DNA of 63,498 bases, counting the filler, from Acidimicrobiia bacterium (GTDB lineage Bacteria; Actinomycetota; Acidimicrobiia; Spongiisociales; JAHEDJ01), in assembly GCA_029210695.1 (NCBI GenBank). It is 7 parts of 7 records of this genome, joined end to end, with 100 filler letters (N's around TTAATTAATTAA, not from the genome) between each part and the next. Parts side by side here need not be neighbours in the genome. Positions count along the whole stretch, not along the records: positions 47,890 to 55,885 come from JARGFH010000096.1; 6 more parts are not named here. One strand, 5' to 3'. The first letter of the stretch is position 1, and the number at the start of each line of letters is the position of its first letter. This document shows, one piece after another, positions 10,971-55,885 of the stretch. The translations under genes and the position numbers were made by a program. The notes under the pieces are model-generated. The model did not search any database, was not told the origin of the DNA, and saw only the letters and a list, made by a program, of their open reading frames with translations.

Positions 10971-11070
10971 NNNNNNNNNNNNNNNNNNNNNNNNNNNNNN
11001 NNNNNNNNNNNNNNTTAATTAATTAANNNNNNNNNNNNNNNNNNNNNNNNNNNNNNNNNNNNNNNNNNNN
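10971..11070. other. Artificial contig linker (also 21652-21751, 30712-30811, 39565-39664, 47790-47889, 55886-55985)
   Basis: N44-TTAATTAATTAA-N44, stops in all frames. Confidence 0.99.
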
Positions 11071-47889: not shown

Positions 47890-47965
47890 GCGTAGTAACC
47901 ATCAGATTGGCAGAGCCCTCCTAATCAACCGGGAACCCCTACACCCCGCTCAATTCCGAAGCGCC
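47890..47965 (+). mobile_element. ISL3-family terminus
   Basis: Ends CCCCGCTCAATTCCGAAGCGCC; contig-terminal 76 bp. Confidence 0.65.
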
Positions 47966-47978
47966 CTATTCGCTGGTT

Positions 47979-48743
47979 GTGGCCGTCGTTCTCCTGGGCG
48001 TCGGGTGCAGCACCGCCGCCACCTCGAGCACGGCTGCCATATCGAGCACCGTCGTCATGCCGAGCACCGACGCGACATCGGGCATCGCCGTCTCACCGGG
48101 TTCGACGGCCGGGACGGTGGAGGATACGGCGTGGCAGAGCGAGTTCGGCCTCGACCAATGCGATCTCGCAACCGTCGGCGGAAATGATTACTTCATCCTC
48201 GAGCCAGGTTTTCAGCTGGTGCTCGAGAGTGCAGCCGAACGCCTGGTGATCACCGTTCTCGATGAGACCGCGACAATCGACGGAGTCGAAACCCGGATCG
48301 TGGAGGAACGCGAGTGGAGGGGCGACTCCCTCATCGAGGTTTCTCGTAACTTCTTCGCCACCTGTGCGGCAACCGGTGACGTCTTCTACTTCGGGGAGGA
48401 GGTGGACGACTACGCAAGCGGGGAGGTCGTGAACCATACCGGAGCGTGGTTAGCGGGCGAGGCCGGGGCCGGGGCCGGGCTCATCATGCCGGCGCAACCC
48501 AGAATCGGCATGCGCTACTTCCAGGAGGTGGCTCCCGAGGTGGCTATGGATCGGGCCGAGGTCGTGAGCCTCACGCACACGCTCGAGACGCCGGCGGGCA
48601 CGTTCTCCGACTGCCTGCGTACCCAGGAAGGATCGGCGCTGAAGCCGGGTGAACGGGAGTTCAAGACGTATGCACCCGGCATCGGCCTCGTTCAGGATCA
48701 ATCCCTTCTGCTCGTTGCGTACGGGTACGACCTGGTGCCGTGA
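47979..48743 (+). CDS. Uncharacterised lipoprotein; signal n-region probably removed by ISL3
   Basis: Lipobox LGVGC; IDGVET..E...FFA...GDVFYFGE..W.AG..GAG..MP..YAPGIG. Confidence 0.75.
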   Translation: MAVVLLGVGCSTAATSSTAAISSTVVMPSTDATSGIAVSPGSTAGTVEDTAWQSEFGLDQCDLATVGGNDYFILEPGFQLVLESAAERLVITVLDETATIDGVETRIVEEREWRGDSLIEVSRNFFATCAATGDVFYFGEEVDDYASGEVVNHTGAWLAGEAGAGAGLIMPAQPRIGMRYFQEVAPEVAMDRAEVVSLTHTLETPAGTFSDCLRTQEGSALKPGEREFKTYAPGIGLVQDQSLLLVAYGYDLVP

Positions 48744-48753
48744 GGCGAGCCCG

Positions 48754-49698
48754 TCACCCGCTGATCGGGTCCGTCAATCCGTAGACGTCCGGACTGATCT
48801 CGTACCCATGGGCTTCCAGATCGAGGACCGCCTCCCGCGCCACCGTTCGGTCGGCGCCGCTCAGCGTCACTACCGAGACGAGCTCCAATTCCTCCCGGCC
48901 CTCGTCGGTGCCACTCCAATCGACCTTGATGTTGCCAACACCGGCAGCGAAGTACTTGTGCTGAAAGGCCCCCGGTTCCTCGACGTTGAACTCGTCGATG
49001 ATCAGAACATCCTCGTAGCATCCGGTTGCGACGCAGACGCTTGCACTGAACCGGCCCACTATTGCCCTGTCGATAAACTCGACGGCCGGCCCCCATCCCT
49101 GGGAATAGCTGGTCGATCCCACCTGCGGATCGCCGCGCATGGCGATTCCGGCGCGTGCTCCGGCGATGCCGGATATCCAGGTCGGCGCATCGACGAGCGC
49201 GCCCGCGTCGTATTCTTCGGGATGCTCTCCCATTCGCCACACGTTGCCGTCATCGTCCTGGGCGAAGAAGGCCAACTCGGTTTCGGCGAGTTCGCCGGCG
49301 CTGTAGTCACGGGCCCAAACCACGAGCGTTTCGATTCCGTCGATGACCTTGGTCATGTCCGTTGCCGTGTAGACGACCCGATGCTCGATCATTTCGAACT
49401 TGTTCGTGAATCCCTTGTAGACGAGCTTGGTCCATGGTTTGAACGGCAGGAAGGGGTTGTCGATCACGGTGGGATCGCTGAAGCGGTCGTAGTCGAGCGT
49501 CTCGTACTCAGTTCGGGGTGCCTCGACCTCCGGGAGTGCCATGACCGTCGATGCTGTCGGTTGGCTGGCCGCCAGGCGGACCGACTCTGAAACGGGAGCC
49601 ACCGTCAGGGGCGTGGGCTCTGCGGCACAGGCAGCCGACATGATCAGAACCACCACACCCGTAGACGCCGCCACGTCGAAACGTCGCACCTCGTTCAC
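48754..49698 (-). CDS. Uncharacterised lipoprotein, paralog of 47979-48743
   Basis: Lipobox SAAC; IDGIET..E...FFAQDDDGNVWRMGE..W.SG..GA.AG..KYFAAGVG. Confidence 0.8.
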   Translation of the reverse strand: MNEVRRFDVAASTGVVVLIMSAACAAEPTPLTVAPVSESVRLAASQPTASTVMALPEVEAPRTEYETLDYDRFSDPTVIDNPFLPFKPWTKLVYKGFTNKFEMIEHRVVYTATDMTKVIDGIETLVVWARDYSAGELAETELAFFAQDDDGNVWRMGEHPEEYDAGALVDAPTWISGIAGARAGIAMRGDPQVGSTSYSQGWGPAVEFIDRAIVGRFSASVCVATGCYEDVLIIDEFNVEEPGAFQHKYFAAGVGNIKVDWSGTDEGREELELVSVVTLSGADRTVAREAVLDLEAHGYEISPDVYGLTDPISG

Positions 49699-49894
49699 CT
49701 CCTTGGCACCGGCGTACCGGCGCCTCCCACACCATTGCTCCTCACCCTACGTGTTCGGGGACGCGGTTGCGGGCCAATGTGGGGATTGTTCGACACGAAT
49801 TGGAAACTCGCAGATCATCGGGCGGGTTGAGCCGGCGATGGACGCATTCGAAAGGAACCTTTCCACGCCGGGTACATGAGTCGGGGACCCGGCG

Positions 49895-50860
49895 CTAAGG
49901 GCCGGCGAACGACAGGAACCACAGGTAATCAACCAGACTGCGGGTCTCCTCGACGGTGAACAGCGTCCCGAAATTGGGCATGTCGGTGCCCATCCCTCCC
50001 CGGCGGATCTTGGCGTACCAGATGTCGCCCCGGCGCAGCCAGGCGGCTTCGGCGAACGCGACGGGCGGATCTATCGTCGATTCGGCCACCGGTCCATCTC
50101 CGCCGCCGCGCTCTCCGTGGCAGGCCGCGCAGTTCTTCGCGAACAACTCGACTGCCTGTTCCGTTGGAACGGTATTCGACCACAGGTAGGCGACGACGTC
50201 GATCAGGAGATCATCCGGTGTGTCGCGGTTGGCGGCGCGAAGCAGTCCGAGACCACCCTCGGGCGTGTGCTGCAGCCGCCAATCTGGTTCGAGAAGTTCG
50301 GCCGGTACCTCGACCGACCCGACACTCGCTTGCCCGCGTGCACGGTCCGGGACGATTCCGTCCACGGTCTGAGGGTCGGCGTCGATATCGATCCCGGCTG
50401 CCACCAATGCCTCGATGATCGGGTCGGGGGGTGACGACAGCGGACTCGCAGCATCGGGGTCGACCACCTCGAGGACGCCGCGCATCCTCCAGTGGCTAGG
50501 ACTGCACCAAGTGTTGCAGTAGTACGTATAGATCCCGGGCGAATCGACCGTAAGCGTTATCTCCCCGACGTGACCGGGGTCTACCTGGCCGATGTCGACC
50601 CCGAGGCCGGGTCCGATGGCGATTCCATGGACGACGTCGTCGGCTGCGAATCGCAGTGTGACCGTTTCCCCGACCTCCATCCGCACCAGGTCCGGTTGGA
50701 ACCCACCATTCTCCGGAACGCGGGCGGTGATGTCGATGATGCGATGATCGGCGAACACCGGGCGAAGTCCGTACTGGTATCCAACGATCGTGAGGGGGAT
50801 ACCGACCAGGATGGCAATCAGCGTGACAATGGCCGTCCGGTTGCCCCGCCCGTTGGTCAT
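49895..50860 (-). CDS. Membrane-anchored CuA-type cupredoxin + cytochrome c fusion
   Basis: TM; DVVHG..CNTWCSPSHWRM; CAACH..MPNF; ATGA overlap at 50857-60. Confidence 0.88.
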   Translation of the reverse strand: MTNGRGNRTAIVTLIAILVGIPLTIVGYQYGLRPVFADHRIIDITARVPENGGFQPDLVRMEVGETVTLRFAADDVVHGIAIGPGLGVDIGQVDPGHVGEITLTVDSPGIYTYYCNTWCSPSHWRMRGVLEVVDPDAASPLSSPPDPIIEALVAAGIDIDADPQTVDGIVPDRARGQASVGSVEVPAELLEPDWRLQHTPEGGLGLLRAANRDTPDDLLIDVVAYLWSNTVPTEQAVELFAKNCAACHGERGGGDGPVAESTIDPPVAFAEAAWLRRGDIWYAKIRRGGMGTDMPNFGTLFTVEETRSLVDYLWFLSFAGP

Positions 50861-52263
50861 CCGAGGTAGAGCCAGAGGAGGGCGAGGGTGGACGCCAGCA
50901 AGAACGCGACGACGGGAACGGCTGCCCGGGTGGCGGTAGTGCCGGAGGGGTCGTGACGGAAACCGACTCGCAGGGTCGTGCGGATACTGAATAGAAGTCC
51001 GCCAACGAGAATGGCGGCTTGGATGGCCGGTGCAGTGCCGGAGAGGTACGGAGTCCATCCGGTCTCGCTCGTTCCGAAGAGGTTCCATCCCCAGCCGAGA
51101 GGGTCCGAGACGGCGGCCAGCGCGTAGCTGCCGTTGGTCAGGGCGAAACCGACGCTGAAGGCCATCCAGGCCGCCAGGCCCAGCGGTATGAGAGAGTGGG
51201 CATATTCGCGATATGCCTGACGGATGGTCACGCCGGTGGCTGACCGTCTTTGCGCGGCAAAGACGGTCAGCCAGAAGACCCCTGGAACGAAGAGCAGCGT
51301 TGCAGAGAGGAAAGCGGTCGCATAGATGGCCCATCCCCAGAGCGATTCGACCGATGCCCACCCCCTGACCGTCGCCCACGGCCCGAACAACACCGCCGGA
51401 TAGATGATGGAGCACGCCAGCATGATGAGTGCCTTGTACGCCTCGTCGATCTGCTTGCCGCCTCCCGGTTTGGCGAGATCGGCACCCGGACGGCGCAGGT
51501 TGATCACGACGTTGTCCATCGTGCACGTTTTCAGACACTCGGTACAGAAACCACAATCGAGGTTGCGGTCGAGTTTCCCTGGGTAGACCATCCACGGACA
51601 GCCATAGCCGCGCTCGTTGCCGGTGATGCAGTCCTTCGAACGGTGGTCCACGCACACCTGTGTGTCGCGGACCCTCAGTTCGATGGGGGCAGCCATCGAG
51701 TAGAGCCCGATGAACCCACCGATCGGGCACACGTACTTGCAGAACACACGGTTCTCGAAGAGCAAACTCATGCTCACGGCAACTCCGGCCAATCCGAGTA
51801 TCACGCCTGCGGACACGGTCGGACGGGTGAGGATGATCATCGAAAACAGAGCGAGGATCAAGAACCCCACATTCTGAATCCACATGTTGCGAAGCCGGCG
51901 GGGCCAGCGGAGCCCCAGGGTGCGCAGCTTCCCCCCTCCGCCGATGATGCCGCGCCGCTGTATCCACTCACCCGGCGCAGGGATCGGGCAGATGGTGCAC
52001 CATATGCGACCAAAACCCGGGACCATCAGCACCATCAGCACCGCCCACCACACGATCCATACGAACACGATGCCGAAGTTGCGATTCCCGGCCGATGTGC
52101 CCAGCAGGCCGGCGACGATCGCCAGCGCGAATGGAGCCAGCAGCAGCAGCATCGACACCGGTTGGAAGGAGCGGGACATGACTACTCGCCTGAGCCGAGG
52201 CATCCGGCCGAGCACATCGAGTCGGCGCTCATCTGCCGGGGGCTTGCGCACGAGCGTCTTCAC
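50857..52263 (-). CDS. Membrane polyferredoxin (NapH/NosR/CcoG-like)
   Basis: GRIWCTICP, FCKYVCP, C..C..GCP, CGFCTECLKTC; many TM. Confidence 0.88.
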   Translation of the reverse strand: MKTLVRKPPADERRLDVLGRMPRLRRVVMSRSFQPVSMLLLLAPFALAIVAGLLGTSAGNRNFGIVFVWIVWWAVLMVLMVPGFGRIWCTICPIPAPGEWIQRRGIIGGGGKLRTLGLRWPRRLRNMWIQNVGFLILALFSMIILTRPTVSAGVILGLAGVAVSMSLLFENRVFCKYVCPIGGFIGLYSMAAPIELRVRDTQVCVDHRSKDCITGNERGYGCPWMVYPGKLDRNLDCGFCTECLKTCTMDNVVINLRRPGADLAKPGGGKQIDEAYKALIMLACSIIYPAVLFGPWATVRGWASVESLWGWAIYATAFLSATLLFVPGVFWLTVFAAQRRSATGVTIRQAYREYAHSLIPLGLAAWMAFSVGFALTNGSYALAAVSDPLGWGWNLFGTSETGWTPYLSGTAPAIQAAILVGGLLFSIRTTLRVGFRHDPSGTTATRAAVPVVAFLLASTLALLWLYLG

Positions 52264-52721
52264 GCCGACCGCCGGGTCCCGGCGCCGATCAACATCGCCG
52301 CCGCCGCAATGACGGCGATGGCGCTCGCCCGCCACAGAGGCTCATTCGGGCCGACGACCAGTTCACCGATCATGAACGGGTGCAGTGGGCCGCAGGATAC
52401 GGAGCAGCGGTAGTTGAACTTGCCGGACCGGTCCGCCGAAACCGTGAACTGCTGCGAGATGCCCGGTTCGACTCTGGCATCGATCTCGTAACCATCGAGG
52501 AAAAAGCCGTGGACGACATCAGAAGCCGTCAGCGTCACCTGCAATGTGTCACCACGATTGACTGTGAGGCGACCCGGGGAGTATTCGAACTGGGACGCAT
52601 CGATTGAAATGCGGTGGGTCTGTGGGGCGTGGAAGGCGGGGACGGGGACCAACAACGCCGCTAGGACAAGCAGCAGGAGGACGGACCTCCGTGCGATGAC
52701 CGGACGTTTCGAGGTCTGCAT
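52260..52721 (-). CDS. CuA-type cupredoxin (COX2-like) with C-terminal TM
   Basis: QFEYSP, DVVHGF, CSVSCGPLHPFM. Confidence 0.88.
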   Translation of the reverse strand: MQTSKRPVIARRSVLLLLVLAALLVPVPAFHAPQTHRISIDASQFEYSPGRLTVNRGDTLQVTLTASDVVHGFFLDGYEIDARVEPGISQQFTVSADRSGKFNYRCSVSCGPLHPFMIGELVVGPNEPLWRASAIAVIAAAAMLIGAGTRRSA

Positions 52722-52734
52722 GCGGCGACTGGAT

Positions 52735-53205
52735 CTACGCCGGGGGGAGCGGAGTCGGCGTCGCAGGGCCAAACTTGCCGTAGCGCCCGTCCACGTACTG
52801 CCGGATTTCAGCCGGGGCCTTGCCGTCTCTCGTCATTCGCATCGTGTCCTGTGCGATGTCCACGCAGATGCCGCACCCCGTCGCGTGCGTATCGAAGGTG
52901 ATGGTGCCGTCGACGGCGATGTCTGCGATGAAGCAATCGAGATTGCTTGTATGGCCCATAGACCCGCAGCCGCAGTAGCAGGGTTGGTGGGAGAGATCAT
53001 CTGGATGGGCGACGGCGAAGAGGTATGCCTCTTGCACTGTGCTCGGAGCGGATCGGGCAAACTCGGGCAGCATCGACTGGTCGGCCAGGTCCATGTCGTG
53101 GCTCTCTCCGCAGGCGGAAACAGCCAAACCTGAGGCGACGATCATCAGCGCCCCTATCAGAGAGATACTCCTCGTGGCGGGCATAGTGCCAAACCTCCCT
53201 GTCAT
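52735..53205 (-). CDS. PCYCGC-motif lipoprotein
   Basis: Lipobox VSAC; PCYCGC, GH.SNLDCF, H..GCGIC. Confidence 0.9.
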   Translation of the reverse strand: MTGRFGTMPATRSISLIGALMIVASGLAVSACGESHDMDLADQSMLPEFARSAPSTVQEAYLFAVAHPDDLSHQPCYCGCGSMGHTSNLDCFIADIAVDGTITFDTHATGCGICVDIAQDTMRMTRDGKAPAEIRQYVDGRYGKFGPATPTPLPPA

Positions 53206-53251
53206 CGTCCGGGCTCCAGGCTCAGAGGGAACGGTGTCCCGGCGCCCATGT

Positions 53252-53740
53252 TCATTGCACCCAGTTCGAGAGAATGGTGATCTGGCGGTCTGGATTGGCC
53301 GGGTCGTTGGTCGGTAAGTGAAGTCGAAAGTCGTGAGGTCCGTCCATGCCGGCGTGCATTGTGAAAGCGACTACGACTTTTGTTGACTCTCCGGGGTTGA
53401 GGACCATCGAACCGATGGTCGGTGTGGGCGGTCAACACCCATCCTTGAGTTCGACGAAGGGCATCTCCGCAAAGAGAAGCGCCGCGTCGCCTGAGTTCGT
53501 CACTTCGAAGACAGCCTCGACCATCTGGTTGAACGGCACGTCACCAAAGTCGACGTAGTCGGAATCGACGGTGAGTGCCGGCGTCCCAGTCGTATCGATG
53601 GCCTCCTGCGACTGATCGGGCTCGTTTCCGGACGCGATGATGGAAACGATTGCGAGGGCCGCGATTGAAGCTCCGGTGAAGAGCAGGGTGCGGGAGCGAA
53701 CCGTCTTCCGGCTCGGTCGTCGATCCGATTGCTTGCTCAC
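53252..53740 (-). CDS. Putative selenoprotein: membrane-anchored DUF1573-like Ig-fold protein with a CU motif (162 aa via UGA at 53432-34)
   Basis: Frame continues 59 codons past TGA: ELKDGC-U-PPTPTIGSMVLNPGEST..MHAGMDGPHDFRLHLPTNDP..SNWVQ*; hairpin 11 nt after UGA. Confidence 0.8.
53402..53420 (-). promoter_or_regulatory. Candidate bacterial SECIS element
   Basis: GACCAUCG-GUU-CGAUGGUC perfect 8-bp stem, with 11 nt between UGA and stem. Confidence 0.7.
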
Positions 53741-53861
53741 GTGTTCCTCTCGTTCATTAGTGATCTTGATCTGTAATTATCAGACAAACTGATGGATACT
53801 GGTGGAGCCAGAAGTCCCAACGCCTCGCGAAAGGTCCCAATGCCGGTTCCGTCACACGATC

Positions 53862-55010
53862 TCATATCGACGGAATCCGCAGCACAAAAGTCGAACCATG
53901 TCCAAGACCCGGTGATTGAGCGCTGATGTCCCCGCCGTGGCGTCTGGCGATAGCACGGGCGATGGTGAGCCCGATGCCGCTGCCGCCGGGTTCGCCTTGG
54001 TGGCCCCGATAGAACCGCTCGAATACGGCGGCTTCTTCTTCTCGCCCGAGGCCCCTTCCTGTGTCGGTAACCTCGACAACAGCCTCGCCGTCCTCGGCGT
54101 GCACGGAGATCGAAACCTTGCCGCCGGGACTGGTGTAAGTGAGCGCGTTGCCGATCACGTTGGTGAGCACCTGCGAGATCCTGTCCCTGTCGGCGAAGAC
54201 GGGGGTGGCTTGTCGAGTGTCCTCGATCATCAACGCCACACCCTTGGCGTCGAACTGCACCCGTAAGTGGCTTCCGACCTCATGGGCGAGGTCGGTCAGA
54301 TCCAGATTCTGGAGGTCGAGAGGCTGGTTGCCTTCCTCGGCCCTCGAAACGGCGCTCAAATCGTCCGCCAGTCGGGTGAGCCTGCGCAGCTCCCGGCCGG
54401 ATGCGGCCAGGATTTCATCGGTCGGCTCGAACACCCCGTCGAGCATGCCTTCGAGGTACCCTTCGATGGTGGTGAGCGGCGTCCGCAGCTCGTGGGATAT
54501 CTCAGAGATCATCCGGATCCTCCGTCGCTCGGTCGAGTCCAATGATTCCGCGAGTGCGTTGACATCCTCGGCCAGGGCTGCGAGCTCTCTTTCGGCGGGC
54601 GGTTCGATCCTCTCCGCGTAGGCGCCGGCTGCCAGCCTGCGCGTGGTGTCTCGAACCGTTTGAAGGGGTGAGAGAATTCGCCGGGTTACGAATCCACTCA
54701 CAACAGTGGCTGCAAGTGCGGCGATCGCCAGCGAGATGAGCAGGGCTCGTCGAAGGGAGCTGTCGAACGCCTGCTGAAGGCCAATATCGATTGCCGGTGT
54801 GAGGAAGCCCGCCGACGAATCACCCATCATGCTGCCGTCCATCATCATGTTGGTGCCCGTCATCATCGCGTTCATGAGTTCGACGTCGCTCTCGAAGAAC
54901 GACGGGGCCAGCAGCTCGGAAATCGCCACGAGCGTTGCGGCGCCCACCAAGAGGACGAGGATCTGGGCGGTCAGCATGCGTGACCACAGGCTTCCGAAAT
55001 GCCTGGTCAC
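53862..55010 (-). CDS. HAMP sensor histidine kinase with Met-rich extracytoplasmic segment
   Basis: SHELRTPL, NVIGNA, DTGRG, FERFYR, GSGIGL; MNAMMTGTNMMMDGSMMG. Confidence 0.93.
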   Translation of the reverse strand: MTRHFGSLWSRMLTAQILVLLVGAATLVAISELLAPSFFESDVELMNAMMTGTNMMMDGSMMGDSSAGFLTPAIDIGLQQAFDSSLRRALLISLAIAALAATVVSGFVTRRILSPLQTVRDTTRRLAAGAYAERIEPPAERELAALAEDVNALAESLDSTERRRIRMISEISHELRTPLTTIEGYLEGMLDGVFEPTDEILAASGRELRRLTRLADDLSAVSRAEEGNQPLDLQNLDLTDLAHEVGSHLRVQFDAKGVALMIEDTRQATPVFADRDRISQVLTNVIGNALTYTSPGGKVSISVHAEDGEAVVEVTDTGRGLGREEEAAVFERFYRGHQGEPGGSGIGLTIARAIARRHGGDISAQSPGLGHGSTFVLRIPSI

Positions 55011-55711
55011 GATTCCACCCCGATGAATTTGTAGCCGACTCCGCGGGCCGTGGCGATGAAACGCGGTTCGAGTGGGTCGTCGTCTAGCACTTTGCGGAGA
55101 TTGGAGATGTGGACGTCAACCACCCGATCGACGCCCACATAGTCCCATCCCCATACCCGTTCCATGAGTTGGTCACGGGAGAAGACACGCCGGGGAGCCT
55201 GGGCCAGCGCGATCAGCAGATCGAATTCGAGGGCACTGAGGTCGAGCAACCGCCCGTCAAGGTGGATCTCACGGGTCCCGAGGTCAATGACCAGTCCTTC
55301 GAACTGCAGCACCTCTGAGGAGCGGGAATCCTGGACGGCAGTTGCGCGTCTCAGAACTGCCCCGATCCGGGCGACGAGTTCCCGGGGAGAAAACGGCTTG
55401 GTCACGTAGTCGTCGGCTCCAACGGTGAGACCGACCACGCGATCAACCTCCTCAGACCGCGCGGTGAGCATGATCACCGGCACCGCTGATAATGCCCGCA
55501 GCCGGCGCAGGACTTCGAAACCATCGATGTCCGGCAAGCCGACGTCGAGCACGACCAGGTCGGGTTCCTTGCCGGCTGCCAGGCTGAGGCCGTCGATCCC
55601 CGCTGCAGCCTCCAGGACCTCGAACCCGTCGGCTTTCAGGTAGCTCGACAGCATGGTTCGGAGGTCCTGCTCGTCATCGATGATCAGTACTCGTCGTGAC
55701 ATATCGGTCAC
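55007..55711 (-). CDS. OmpR-family response regulator
   Basis: IIDDE, LDVGLP, GADDYVTKPF, RVVDVHISNLR. Confidence 0.95.
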   Translation of the reverse strand: MTDMSRRVLIIDDEQDLRTMLSSYLKADGFEVLEAAAGIDGLSLAAGKEPDLVVLDVGLPDIDGFEVLRRLRALSAVPVIMLTARSEEVDRVVGLTVGADDYVTKPFSPRELVARIGAVLRRATAVQDSRSSEVLQFEGLVIDLGTREIHLDGRLLDLSALEFDLLIALAQAPRRVFSRDQLMERVWGWDYVGVDRVVDVHISNLRKVLDDDPLEPRFIATARGVGYKFIGVES

Positions 55712-55733
55712 GGATGGTAGGGGGATGCGATCG

Positions 55734-55885
55734 TTATCGACCGAACCCCATCCCGCCCCCGGACCCCATCGGCCCCAAACCGTCTGGCACGATCGTTTGA
55801 CCGTCGTTCCAGATCGAGTCGTGCATTTGGTTCATCCAGGCGGCGTCTTGGTCGGTGAGTGTTTCGTTGTTGTTCCACATGGAGT
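55734..55885 (-). CDS. C-terminus of a Met/His-rich repeat protein (5'-partial; not in the ORF track)
   Basis: SMWNNNETLTDQDAAWMNQMHDSIWNDGQTIVPDGLGPMGSGGGMGFGR*. Confidence 0.65.

Follow-up and report, generated by a model that had tools for sequence, protein, structure and literature searches.

The locus considered here raises the question of whether an in-frame TGA codon in a small gene of an Acidimicrobiia bacterium (assembly GCA_029210695.1) ends translation, as the annotation implies, or is instead decoded as selenocysteine (Sec). The gene lies on the minus strand at positions 53252..53740 of the window, by which we mean the whole 63,498-nucleotide stretch of DNA that was analyzed, and its host contig comprises 7,996 bases (window 47890-55885). 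It is annotated as an open reading frame (ORF) of 102 amino acids (53740..53432, minus) that ends in ...FVELKDGC followed by TGA. Based on comparative sequence analyses, we conclude that the gene very probably encodes a real selenoprotein that gene callers have truncated.

The reading frame and its domain continue past the TGA

Past codon 103, the frame remains open for 59 sense codons (104-162) before a second TGA is reached. The continuation (PPTPTIGSMVLNPGES...MHAGMDGPHDFRLHLPTNDP...LSNWVQ) includes the strings LNPGES, TNDP and MHAGMDGPH, and the peptide across the UGA would read DGC-U-PPTPTIGSMVLNPGESTK. A Shine-Dalgarno-like stretch, GAGAGGAA, stands 5 nt ahead of the GTG start. The features of the gene are as follows:

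53252..53740, minus strand: complete putative selenoprotein gene, with a GTG start at 53740, 162 codons and a terminal TGA at 53254-53252
53432..53434, minus strand: in-frame TGA, codon 103, in a Gly-Cys-Sec-Pro-Pro motif, read here as Sec
53273..53581, minus strand: immunoglobulin (Ig)-like (ASH/PapD-like, DUF1573) beta-sandwich domain, residues 54-156, from Pfam, AlphaFold2 and Foldseek
53630..53680, minus strand: hydrophobic helix near the N-terminus (residues 21-37) that follows a basic stretch, from AlphaFold2 secondary structure and sequence
53333..53359, minus strand: MHAGMDGPH motif, in which Met128, Met132 and His136 are invariant and His129 is nearly invariant

Two Pfam models extend across the TGA, namely HYDIN_VesB_CFA65-like_Ig (PF22544; residues 54-156, 42.9 bits against a cut-off of 25.5) and DUF1573 (PF07610; residues 57-130, 30.0 bits against a cut-off of 26.1). 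AlphaFold2, run on a 56-row alignment, gave a model with a mean predicted local distance difference test (pLDDT) score of 84.5 and a predicted template modelling score of 0.67; residues 51-162 reach a pLDDT of about 96-98, and the helix at residues 21-37 is of low confidence. Foldseek matched the model to ASH/PapD-like Ig domains and to 2qsv, a Porphyromonas protein of unknown function. The N-terminus consists of a basic stretch followed by a 20-residue hydrophobic helix without a lipobox Cys, which suggests a signal anchor or signal peptide and thus export or membrane anchoring. The original prediction had described an ORF stopping in mid-domain at KDGC, a 59-codon continuation with the three strings above and a DUF1573-like fold. 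All three descriptions hold: the Pfam domain crosses the stop at the end of 53740..53432, the continuation ends at the second TGA, and both models exceed their thresholds across the first.

Two same-genus relatives have TAG in place of the terminal TGA, so the second TGA (53254-53252) is the true stop. An alternative genetic code was ruled out, since TGA ends the gene at codon 163 and TAG stands there in the relatives. The possibility that the two halves are separate genes was likewise rejected; a single Ig-like/DUF1573 domain runs across the first TGA.

TGA or cysteine occupies codon 103 in related sequences

Among 61 related genomes searched, the gene is carried by three, the window's own genome being one of the carriers, and each copy has a single in-frame TGA; completeness is 56-92% for the four same-genus genomes in which no match was found. 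Further loci were drawn from metagenome contigs (9) and genome contigs (8), and 29 loci were then examined. G-C-x-P-P is present in 17 of these, and x is TGA in all 17. These loci represent 12 distinct sequences with 44-100% identity to the window. The remaining 12 loci comprise seven Cys paralogues with G-C-C-P-G, two classical DUF1573 sequences with C-G-C and three distant sequences without the motif.

A protein-database search returned 127 proteins at E <= 0.001 out of 205 candidates. Among the 120 homologues listed, 11 are entries of 97-107 amino acids, and the ten of these that were aligned all stop at ...DGC, in keeping with the expectation that annotation pipelines would split the gene. 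One such entry, of 101 amino acids, is named by NCBI 'DUF1573 domain-containing protein [Acidimicrobiia bacterium]'. Full-length homologues (~160 residues) read G-C-C-P-P, and those with a source name are from Chloroflexota. In an alignment of 56 rows (A4), consisting of three Sec forms and 53 natural Cys forms, the position of codon 103 is Cys in 53/53 natural full-length homologues, and the invariant columns are G101, C102, C103, P104, P105, P116, G117, M128, M132, H136, S158 and W160. When deep paralogues are added (alignment A6), the residues kept across orthologues and paralogues are C, C/U and P, then M-H-x-x-M-x-G-x-H. Since the homologues read G-C-C-P-P, Sec would substitute for the second Cys of an invariant vicinal pair. 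Thus, the prediction that homologues would show TGA or Cys at this codon is borne out by both kinds of sequence: TGA in 17/17 loci with the motif and Cys in 53/53 full-length forms.

A conserved hairpin lies immediately downstream of the UGA

The hairpin GACCAUCG-GUU-CGAUGGUC begins 11 nt past the UGA, a spacing that the original prediction gives as that of the E. coli Sec insertion sequence (SECIS), and is closed by a perfect 8-bp stem. Its minimum free energy (MFE) when folded alone is -10.5 kcal/mol. The two RNA features are:

53402..53420, minus strand: putative SECIS upper stem-loop, in which 8 bp close a GUU loop or, alternatively, 7 bp close a GGUUC loop
53382..53436, minus strand: possible extended SECIS, in which a lower stem of GUUG/CAAC and CCG/CGG takes in part of the UGA, from the RNAalifold consensus

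Between 7 and 17 of the 17 rows keep the pairs of this lower stem, in which changes from U-A to U-G are seen; in the divergent loci L046-L048 the pairing is disrupted. A lower stem is thus possible, with weaker support than the upper stem-loop. Compared with the consensus SECIS model (Zhang & Gladyshev), as given in the 2026 review PMC13188914, the hairpin has the following properties:

Apical loop: required 3-9 nt; observed 3 nt
Upper stem: required 4-16 bp; observed 8 bp
[quoted passage not shown]
Distance from UGA to loop: required 16-37 nt; observed 19 nt
MFE: required -7.5 kcal/mol or lower; observed -10.5 kcal/mol

The hairpin is kept in all 17 loci. Across the 12 distinct sequences, 100% of stem cells are paired, with seven of the eight pairs invariant and one changed on both sides, while slid control positions pair at only 12-72%. 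To compare codon constraint along the gene, pairwise synonymous-difference rates were calculated for the 12 distinct Sec-form sequences:

Codons 56-100 (upstream): synonymous rate 0.335; invariant degenerate columns with more than one codon, 16/16
Codons 107-113 (stem): synonymous rate 0.000; invariant degenerate columns with more than one codon, 0/4
Codons 115-162 (downstream): synonymous rate 0.339; invariant degenerate columns with more than one codon, 19/20

Non-synonymous rates were 0.288 upstream and 0.265 downstream of the TGA. The frame 3' of the TGA is therefore coding, under a constraint equal to that of the upstream frame. In codons 107-113, no synonymous difference was observed in 462 codon pairs, the codons in all 12 sequences being CCG, ACC/GCC, ATC, GGT, TCG, ATG and GTC/GCC. 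For example, Gly110 is GGT in 12/12 sequences, whereas other invariant Gly columns use four codons, and the invariant Gly, Pro, Ser and Ile columns outside the stem use 2-5 codons.

The one variable pair, stem pair 2, changes from A-U to G-C in three of the 12 distinct rows by way of Thr108Ala together with Val113Ala. The loci with the G-C pair are L046/L047/L048 and L053. In a maximum-likelihood tree, L053 is nested in A-U sequences (94/89 support with L051/L052) and L046/L047 form a separate clade. Since L053 is nested in this way, the double change arose at least twice. Duplicates (L043, L044, L045, L048 and L050) were left out of both the tree and the codon counts, and L025 was left out of the tree outgroup. 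As a negative control, the seven Cys paralogues, with TGT or TGC at the corresponding position, form no perfect hairpin longer than 6 bp over the corresponding stretch; those present there measure 2-6 bp and are not conserved. Taken together, these data match the original prediction of a perfect 8-bp stem with a GUU loop starting 11 nt downstream of the UGA (seen at 53420..53402), and of a downstream frame and hairpin conserved in homologues.

Scans of a more general kind were also run. A scan of 53150-53900 against Rfam at E values up to 10 returned only a chance microRNA match (14.1 bits against 64), and a promoter and terminator scan found no promoter-like site and nothing informative. A genome screen for TGA followed by a hairpin and an open frame yielded 96 candidates, mostly high-GC open frames.

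The host genome encodes Sec machinery and other selenoproteins

All four of the genes expected under the original prediction, selA, selB, selC and selD, were found in the genome. The selA gene (433.8 bits) adjoins selB (298.2 bits) on contig C160, and tRNA-Sec (selC) scores 73.3 bits and is called by ARAGORN as tRNA-SeC with anticodon TCA. The selD gene (398.6 bits; contig C94:13659-14588, minus, locus L001) has its own in-frame TGA in ...SHGSG-U-ACK..., and an AhpD-related gene (NF041238, 228.9 bits; contig C11:17728-18651, plus, locus L057) has one in C-F-Y-U. selA was also detected in 5/5 other carrier genomes, exceeding the cut-off in four; the fifth match is a 94-position fragment at a contig end.

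The hairpin after the selD UGA has a loop that begins GUU, and the string UCGGUUC is common to this hairpin and the one at 53402..53420. An organism-specific SECIS loop motif is not claimed, since UCGGUUC is absent from the hairpin of the AhpD-like gene.

Alternatives to Sec insertion

Several observations weigh against a Sec reading. A loop of 3 nt is the shortest that the SECIS model allows. Perfect hairpins of at least 8 bp in SECIS geometry follow 433 of the 109,884 TGA trinucleotides in the genome (0.39%), so a hairpin at one given TGA by chance is unlikely yet possible. The 76-nt region folds no better than shuffled sequences (z = -1.29; 25/200 shuffles as good or better), which makes conservation, not fold energy, the basis of the case. 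Only a single pair covaries; the seven others never vary and for that reason are uninformative on pairing. The covariation score was matched in 3/500 shuffles, and relatedness alone can yield such covariation. The I-G-S-M of the stem-encoded peptide is also present in many Cys forms, so hairpin conservation is partly protein-level. The Cys-paralogue control is partial in that these paralogues encode a different peptide and are not GCCPP orthologues, and a scan of viral contigs found no DNA of GCCPP Cys orthologues. Lastly, a sequencing-run search listed no RNA run. Four DNA runs contain small shares (0.12-0.17) of the sequence words.

If the TGA were a nonsense mutation or an assembly error, the locus would be a pseudogene from which a 102-residue N-terminal piece or nothing is made, which we find hardly credible. 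Gene callers do stop at the TGA, and the gene was found with the query used in only 2/6 other same-genus genomes, so it is dispensable in some relatives, although two of the four genomes lacking it are less than 80% complete. However, the TGA stands at the same codon in 17/17 loci from independent assemblies, down to 44% identity, the purifying pattern is equal before and after it, the hairpin is conserved at synonymous sites, and identities of 44-87% exclude the loci being copies of a single recent pseudogene. A simple nonsense mutation had been expected in the original prediction to go with a sense codon in all homologues and a host lacking sel genes; the related loci with the G-C-x-P-P motif instead have TGA and the sel genes are present. 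It is also conceivable, although highly unlikely, that the UGA is recoded but not as Sec, through near-cognate Trp or Cys insertion or through generic hairpin-induced read-through or pausing, giving short and long products. The evidence at hand is sequence only, and hairpins after stop codons can promote read-through. In contrast, all 53 natural full-length homologues have Cys aligned at this position, as is characteristic of Cys/Sec pairs, the hairpin agrees with the SelB-type consensus, G-U at the loop start included, selA is present in every carrier genome checked, and the genome recodes TGA at known Sec sites in selD and the AhpD-like gene. Sec insertion is rarely fully efficient, and a truncated 102-residue product is likely to be made beside the full-length one.

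The gene lies among predicted copper-protein genes

Between positions 10971 and 55985, the window contains several contigs parted by paired 44-N spacers, and arguments from neighbourhood are valid within 47890-55885 only. The neighbouring genes are:

55007..55711, minus strand: OmpR-type response regulator, which with the kinase lies directly upstream of the selenoprotein gene
53862..55010, minus strand: sensor kinase, upstream of the selenoprotein gene, whose predicted sensor loop is rich in Met (MNAMMTGTNMMMDGSMMGD)
52735..53205, minus strand: lipoprotein gene of the PCYCGC family, in its Cys form, separated by 46 nt from the selenoprotein gene upstream of it
52260..52772, minus strand: small cupredoxin with a membrane anchor and the CuA ligand pattern CSVSCGPLHPFM, from Pfam COX2/Cupredoxin_1 and motif
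50857..52335, minus strand: polytopic iron-sulfur (Fe-S) membrane protein (Fer4_5), from Pfam; NCBIfam NapH scores 19 bits, far under its cut-off
49895..50860, minus strand: fusion of a CuA cupredoxin (CNTWCSPSHWRM) with a c-type cytochrome (CAACH), from Pfam and motifs

The ATG of the CuA-cytochrome c fusion overlaps the stop of the preceding gene. The PCYCGC lipoprotein scores 112.8 bits with Pfam PF13798 and 69.3 bits with NF041379, the CYCXC (seleno)protein model, for which the cut-off is 90; the window copy and the 13 aligned sequences are all Cys forms. On the contig, neither a haem-copper oxidase subunit I nor a NosZ catalytic domain was found.

A PCYCGC gene, confirmed by alignment, is adjacent in 7/8 related loci inspected, and the same downstream gene order follows the Sec gene in 7/8 loci, judged by ORF order, length and shared end sequences. 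In the divergent locus L047, Fer4_5 and cupredoxin-cytochrome c genes precede the Sec gene (Pfam). Paralogues from other Acidimicrobiia with E-G-C-C-P-G...M-H-x-G-M-D-G-x-H (L024-L030) also lie beside a PCYCGC gene in the 4/4 cases tested by Pfam, and the L029 paralogue is in addition beside a plastocyanin-family copper protein gene (925-1410). Since this adjacency is found in both orthologous and paralogous loci, the Ig-like CC/CU protein and the PCYCGC protein constitute a conserved two-gene module tied to cupredoxins. A complex prediction for the L029 Cys-form Ig-like domain with its PCYCGC neighbour scored 0.07, against a mark of 0.32, a result that speaks neither for nor against binding.

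The Met-rich loop of the kinase recalls Met motifs that bind Cu(I), and the G005 orthologue shares this loop. Small Met/His/Trp-rich ORFs with MWNN...MHDSxW repeats were observed upstream of the regulators at 55734-55880 (minus, cut by the contig end), L050:2-376 and L030:1109-1447; they have no Pfam match except for a SHOCT tail in L030, and are possibly copper-binding peptides. Two further ORFs, of 254 and 314 residues, lie on opposite strands at window 47979-49698; their N-termini are signal-like, and neither was matched by Pfam or NCBIfam at the thresholds applied.

A possible role in copper or redox chemistry

Taking gene, hairpin, host and neighbourhood together, we consider it very probable that the locus encodes a Sec-decoded, 162-residue exported Ig-like protein in a copper-protein operon. 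In this explanation, the UGA at codon 103 would be decoded as Sec by SelA, SelB, tRNA-Sec and SelD, as directed by the in-ORF SECIS hairpin 11 nt past it. Insertion of selenium at this codon is what we infer from the conserved sequence features, and the N-terminal hydrophobic helix points to an extracytoplasmic location. The residue set C, C/U and M-H-x-x-M-x-G-x-H is typical of Cu(I) ligands, and a vicinal Cys-Sec pair can form a selenenylsulfide. The Cys-Sec pair may thus form a Cu(I) (soft-metal) site with Met128, His129, Met132 and His136, or a redox-active selenenylsulfide, and would act with the adjacent PCYCGC lipoprotein within the CuA cupredoxin/cytochrome c/Fe-S operon. A metal or redox role is plausible given the invariant Cys/Sec/Met/His residues and the copper-protein neighbours, and the conserved adjacency suggests a partnership with the PCYCGC protein. 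More specifically, a selenium-containing Cu(I) site or selenenylsulfide switch might, together with the PCYCGC protein, load or reduce extracellular CuA cupredoxin centres, a proposal that we advance as speculative.

Three results count against a copper function. No metal-protein family stands out among the Foldseek matches, which are generic Ig-like domains only; no copper-chaperone family (Sco, PCuAC, CopZ-like) appears among the Pfam, NCBIfam and listed Foldseek matches; and the best named matches of the response regulator and kinase are all under cut-offs, those to heavy-metal subfamily models included. It is possible, if rather doubtful, that the protein is a genuine selenoprotein in which the Cys-Sec pair, unrelated to copper, serves as a thiol/selenol oxidoreductase or as a trap for Hg or another soft metal, its neighbours being members of a shared envelope-stress regulon rather than of a common pathway. 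A vicinal Cys-Sec pair is the redox centre of mammalian thioredoxin reductase. The MerR-type metal regulator upstream in locus L040 matches CadR/PbrR, MerR and CueR about equally (86-95 bits, all under cut-offs), and the review PMC13188914 records vicinal CU motifs for a MerB-like lyase and ties many metal-associated selenoproteins to Hg/As resistance. On the other side stand the linkage to CuA cupredoxins in both divergent Sec lineages, the paralogous module beside a plastocyanin-family gene, and the invariant Met/His residues, which on general coordination chemistry would favour Cu(I) over Hg(II).

Significance

For annotation, the whole clade has been deposited as fragments of 101-103 residues, and because of this the half with the invariant Met and His residues is missing from databases. 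With this gene, the known bacterial selenoproteins would gain an exported member with a vicinal Cys-Sec pair, from a class on whose selenoproteins a literature search found little, and the use of selenium would be connected with an operon of stand-alone CuA proteins that is as yet unstudied. In both the CC-type DUF1573 branch and PCYCGC, the functional centre is marked by the Cys/Sec site, which therefore shows which residues to mutate. The locus also offers a clear example of a SECIS dictating the encoded peptide, in which a single stem change needed two coordinated substitutions. Its value lies in annotation, in a clean SECIS example and in an entry to a copper-linked operon, and it is not a fundamentally new mechanism. 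If the speculative loading role were true, this would be the first selenoprotein copper-assembly factor, and part of an undescribed CuA/polyferredoxin electron-transfer module.

Comparison with known systems

Like E. coli-type SECIS elements, the hairpin is a stem-loop within the ORF just after the UGA, and it agrees with them on four criteria. In contrast with those elements, its sequence is unrelated to fdhF, its loop measures only 3 nt, or 5 nt should the closing G-C pair open, and it has neither a bulged U nor an Rfam family match. The Sco and PCuAC proteins provide a functional analogy, being small extracytoplasmic proteins with Cys or Met/His ligands that are encoded beside CuA genes, although no sequence or fold match to them was seen and membership is not claimed. 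The Gly-Cys-Sec-Gly of mammalian thioredoxin reductase is likewise a Gly-preceded vicinal Cys-Sec pair, with an eight-membered selenenylsulfide ring possible in both, but it is located in a flexible C-terminal tail, whereas the pair described here would be in an internal Ig-like loop followed by Pro-Pro, in a bacterial protein that is predicted to be exported and has no flavoprotein partner.

The neighbouring gene belongs to the CYCXC/OS_HP4 family (PF13798, NF041379) and is coupled to the Ig-like CC/CU protein. It differs from the selenoprotein gene in being another gene with another fold, present here in its Cys form. Sec forms of this PCYCGC (OS_HP4/CYCXC) family, with UxxC, are known according to PMC13188914.

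The closest comparison is with the DUF1573 selenoproteins. The reviews PMC9312934 and PMC13188914 list a DUF1573 domain-containing protein with the motif UGC as a prokaryotic selenoprotein family, and both credit it to their Olavius-symbiont reference; OS_HP2 has been in print since 2007 among the new selenoprotein families of Olavius symbionts (PMC1976440). We infer from the model name, and from its match to a DUF1573-fold protein, that NF041425 (OS_HP2_seleno) and the DUF1573 row of the reviews are the same family. The main text of PMC13188914 does not contain GCU, CUP, HYDIN, choice-of-anchor, cupredoxin or periplasmic, and searches of the available literature on DUF1573, PCYCGC and Acidimicrobiia selenoproteins turned up no account of a CU-PP subfamily, although supplementary tables of large screens may list one.

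OS_HP2 and the protein described here share the DUF1573 fold superfamily, the placement of Sec in the same Cys-bearing loop after the fourth strand, and prediction from Cys/Sec pairs with a SECIS inside the coding sequence. They differ in motif (C-U-P-P here, in the context G-C-U-P-P, versus U-G-C or its Cys form C-G-C), in host (Acidimicrobiia versus deltaproteobacterial symbionts) and in the invariant M-H-x-x-M-x-x-x-H, which classical DUF1573 sequences lack. With NF041425, for which the cut-off is 100, the protein scores 17.6 bits (17.7 on the genome). A profile alignment with classical DUF1573 (97.6% probability) pairs Cys102 with the first Cys of C-G-C and Sec103 with the Gly, one column after the OS_HP2 Sec. 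The original prediction that the UGA falls where the family has its Cys motif thus applies exactly to its own GCCPP subfamily, whereas against the classical C-G-C the UGA is in the same loop but one column later. The claim of novelty fares similarly: DUF1573 selenoproteins had already been published as OS_HP2, and what stands is a different, unlisted group. Given the 17.6-bit score, the Sec one column later and the added Met/His motif, this group constitutes a separate subfamily of the DUF1573 fold.

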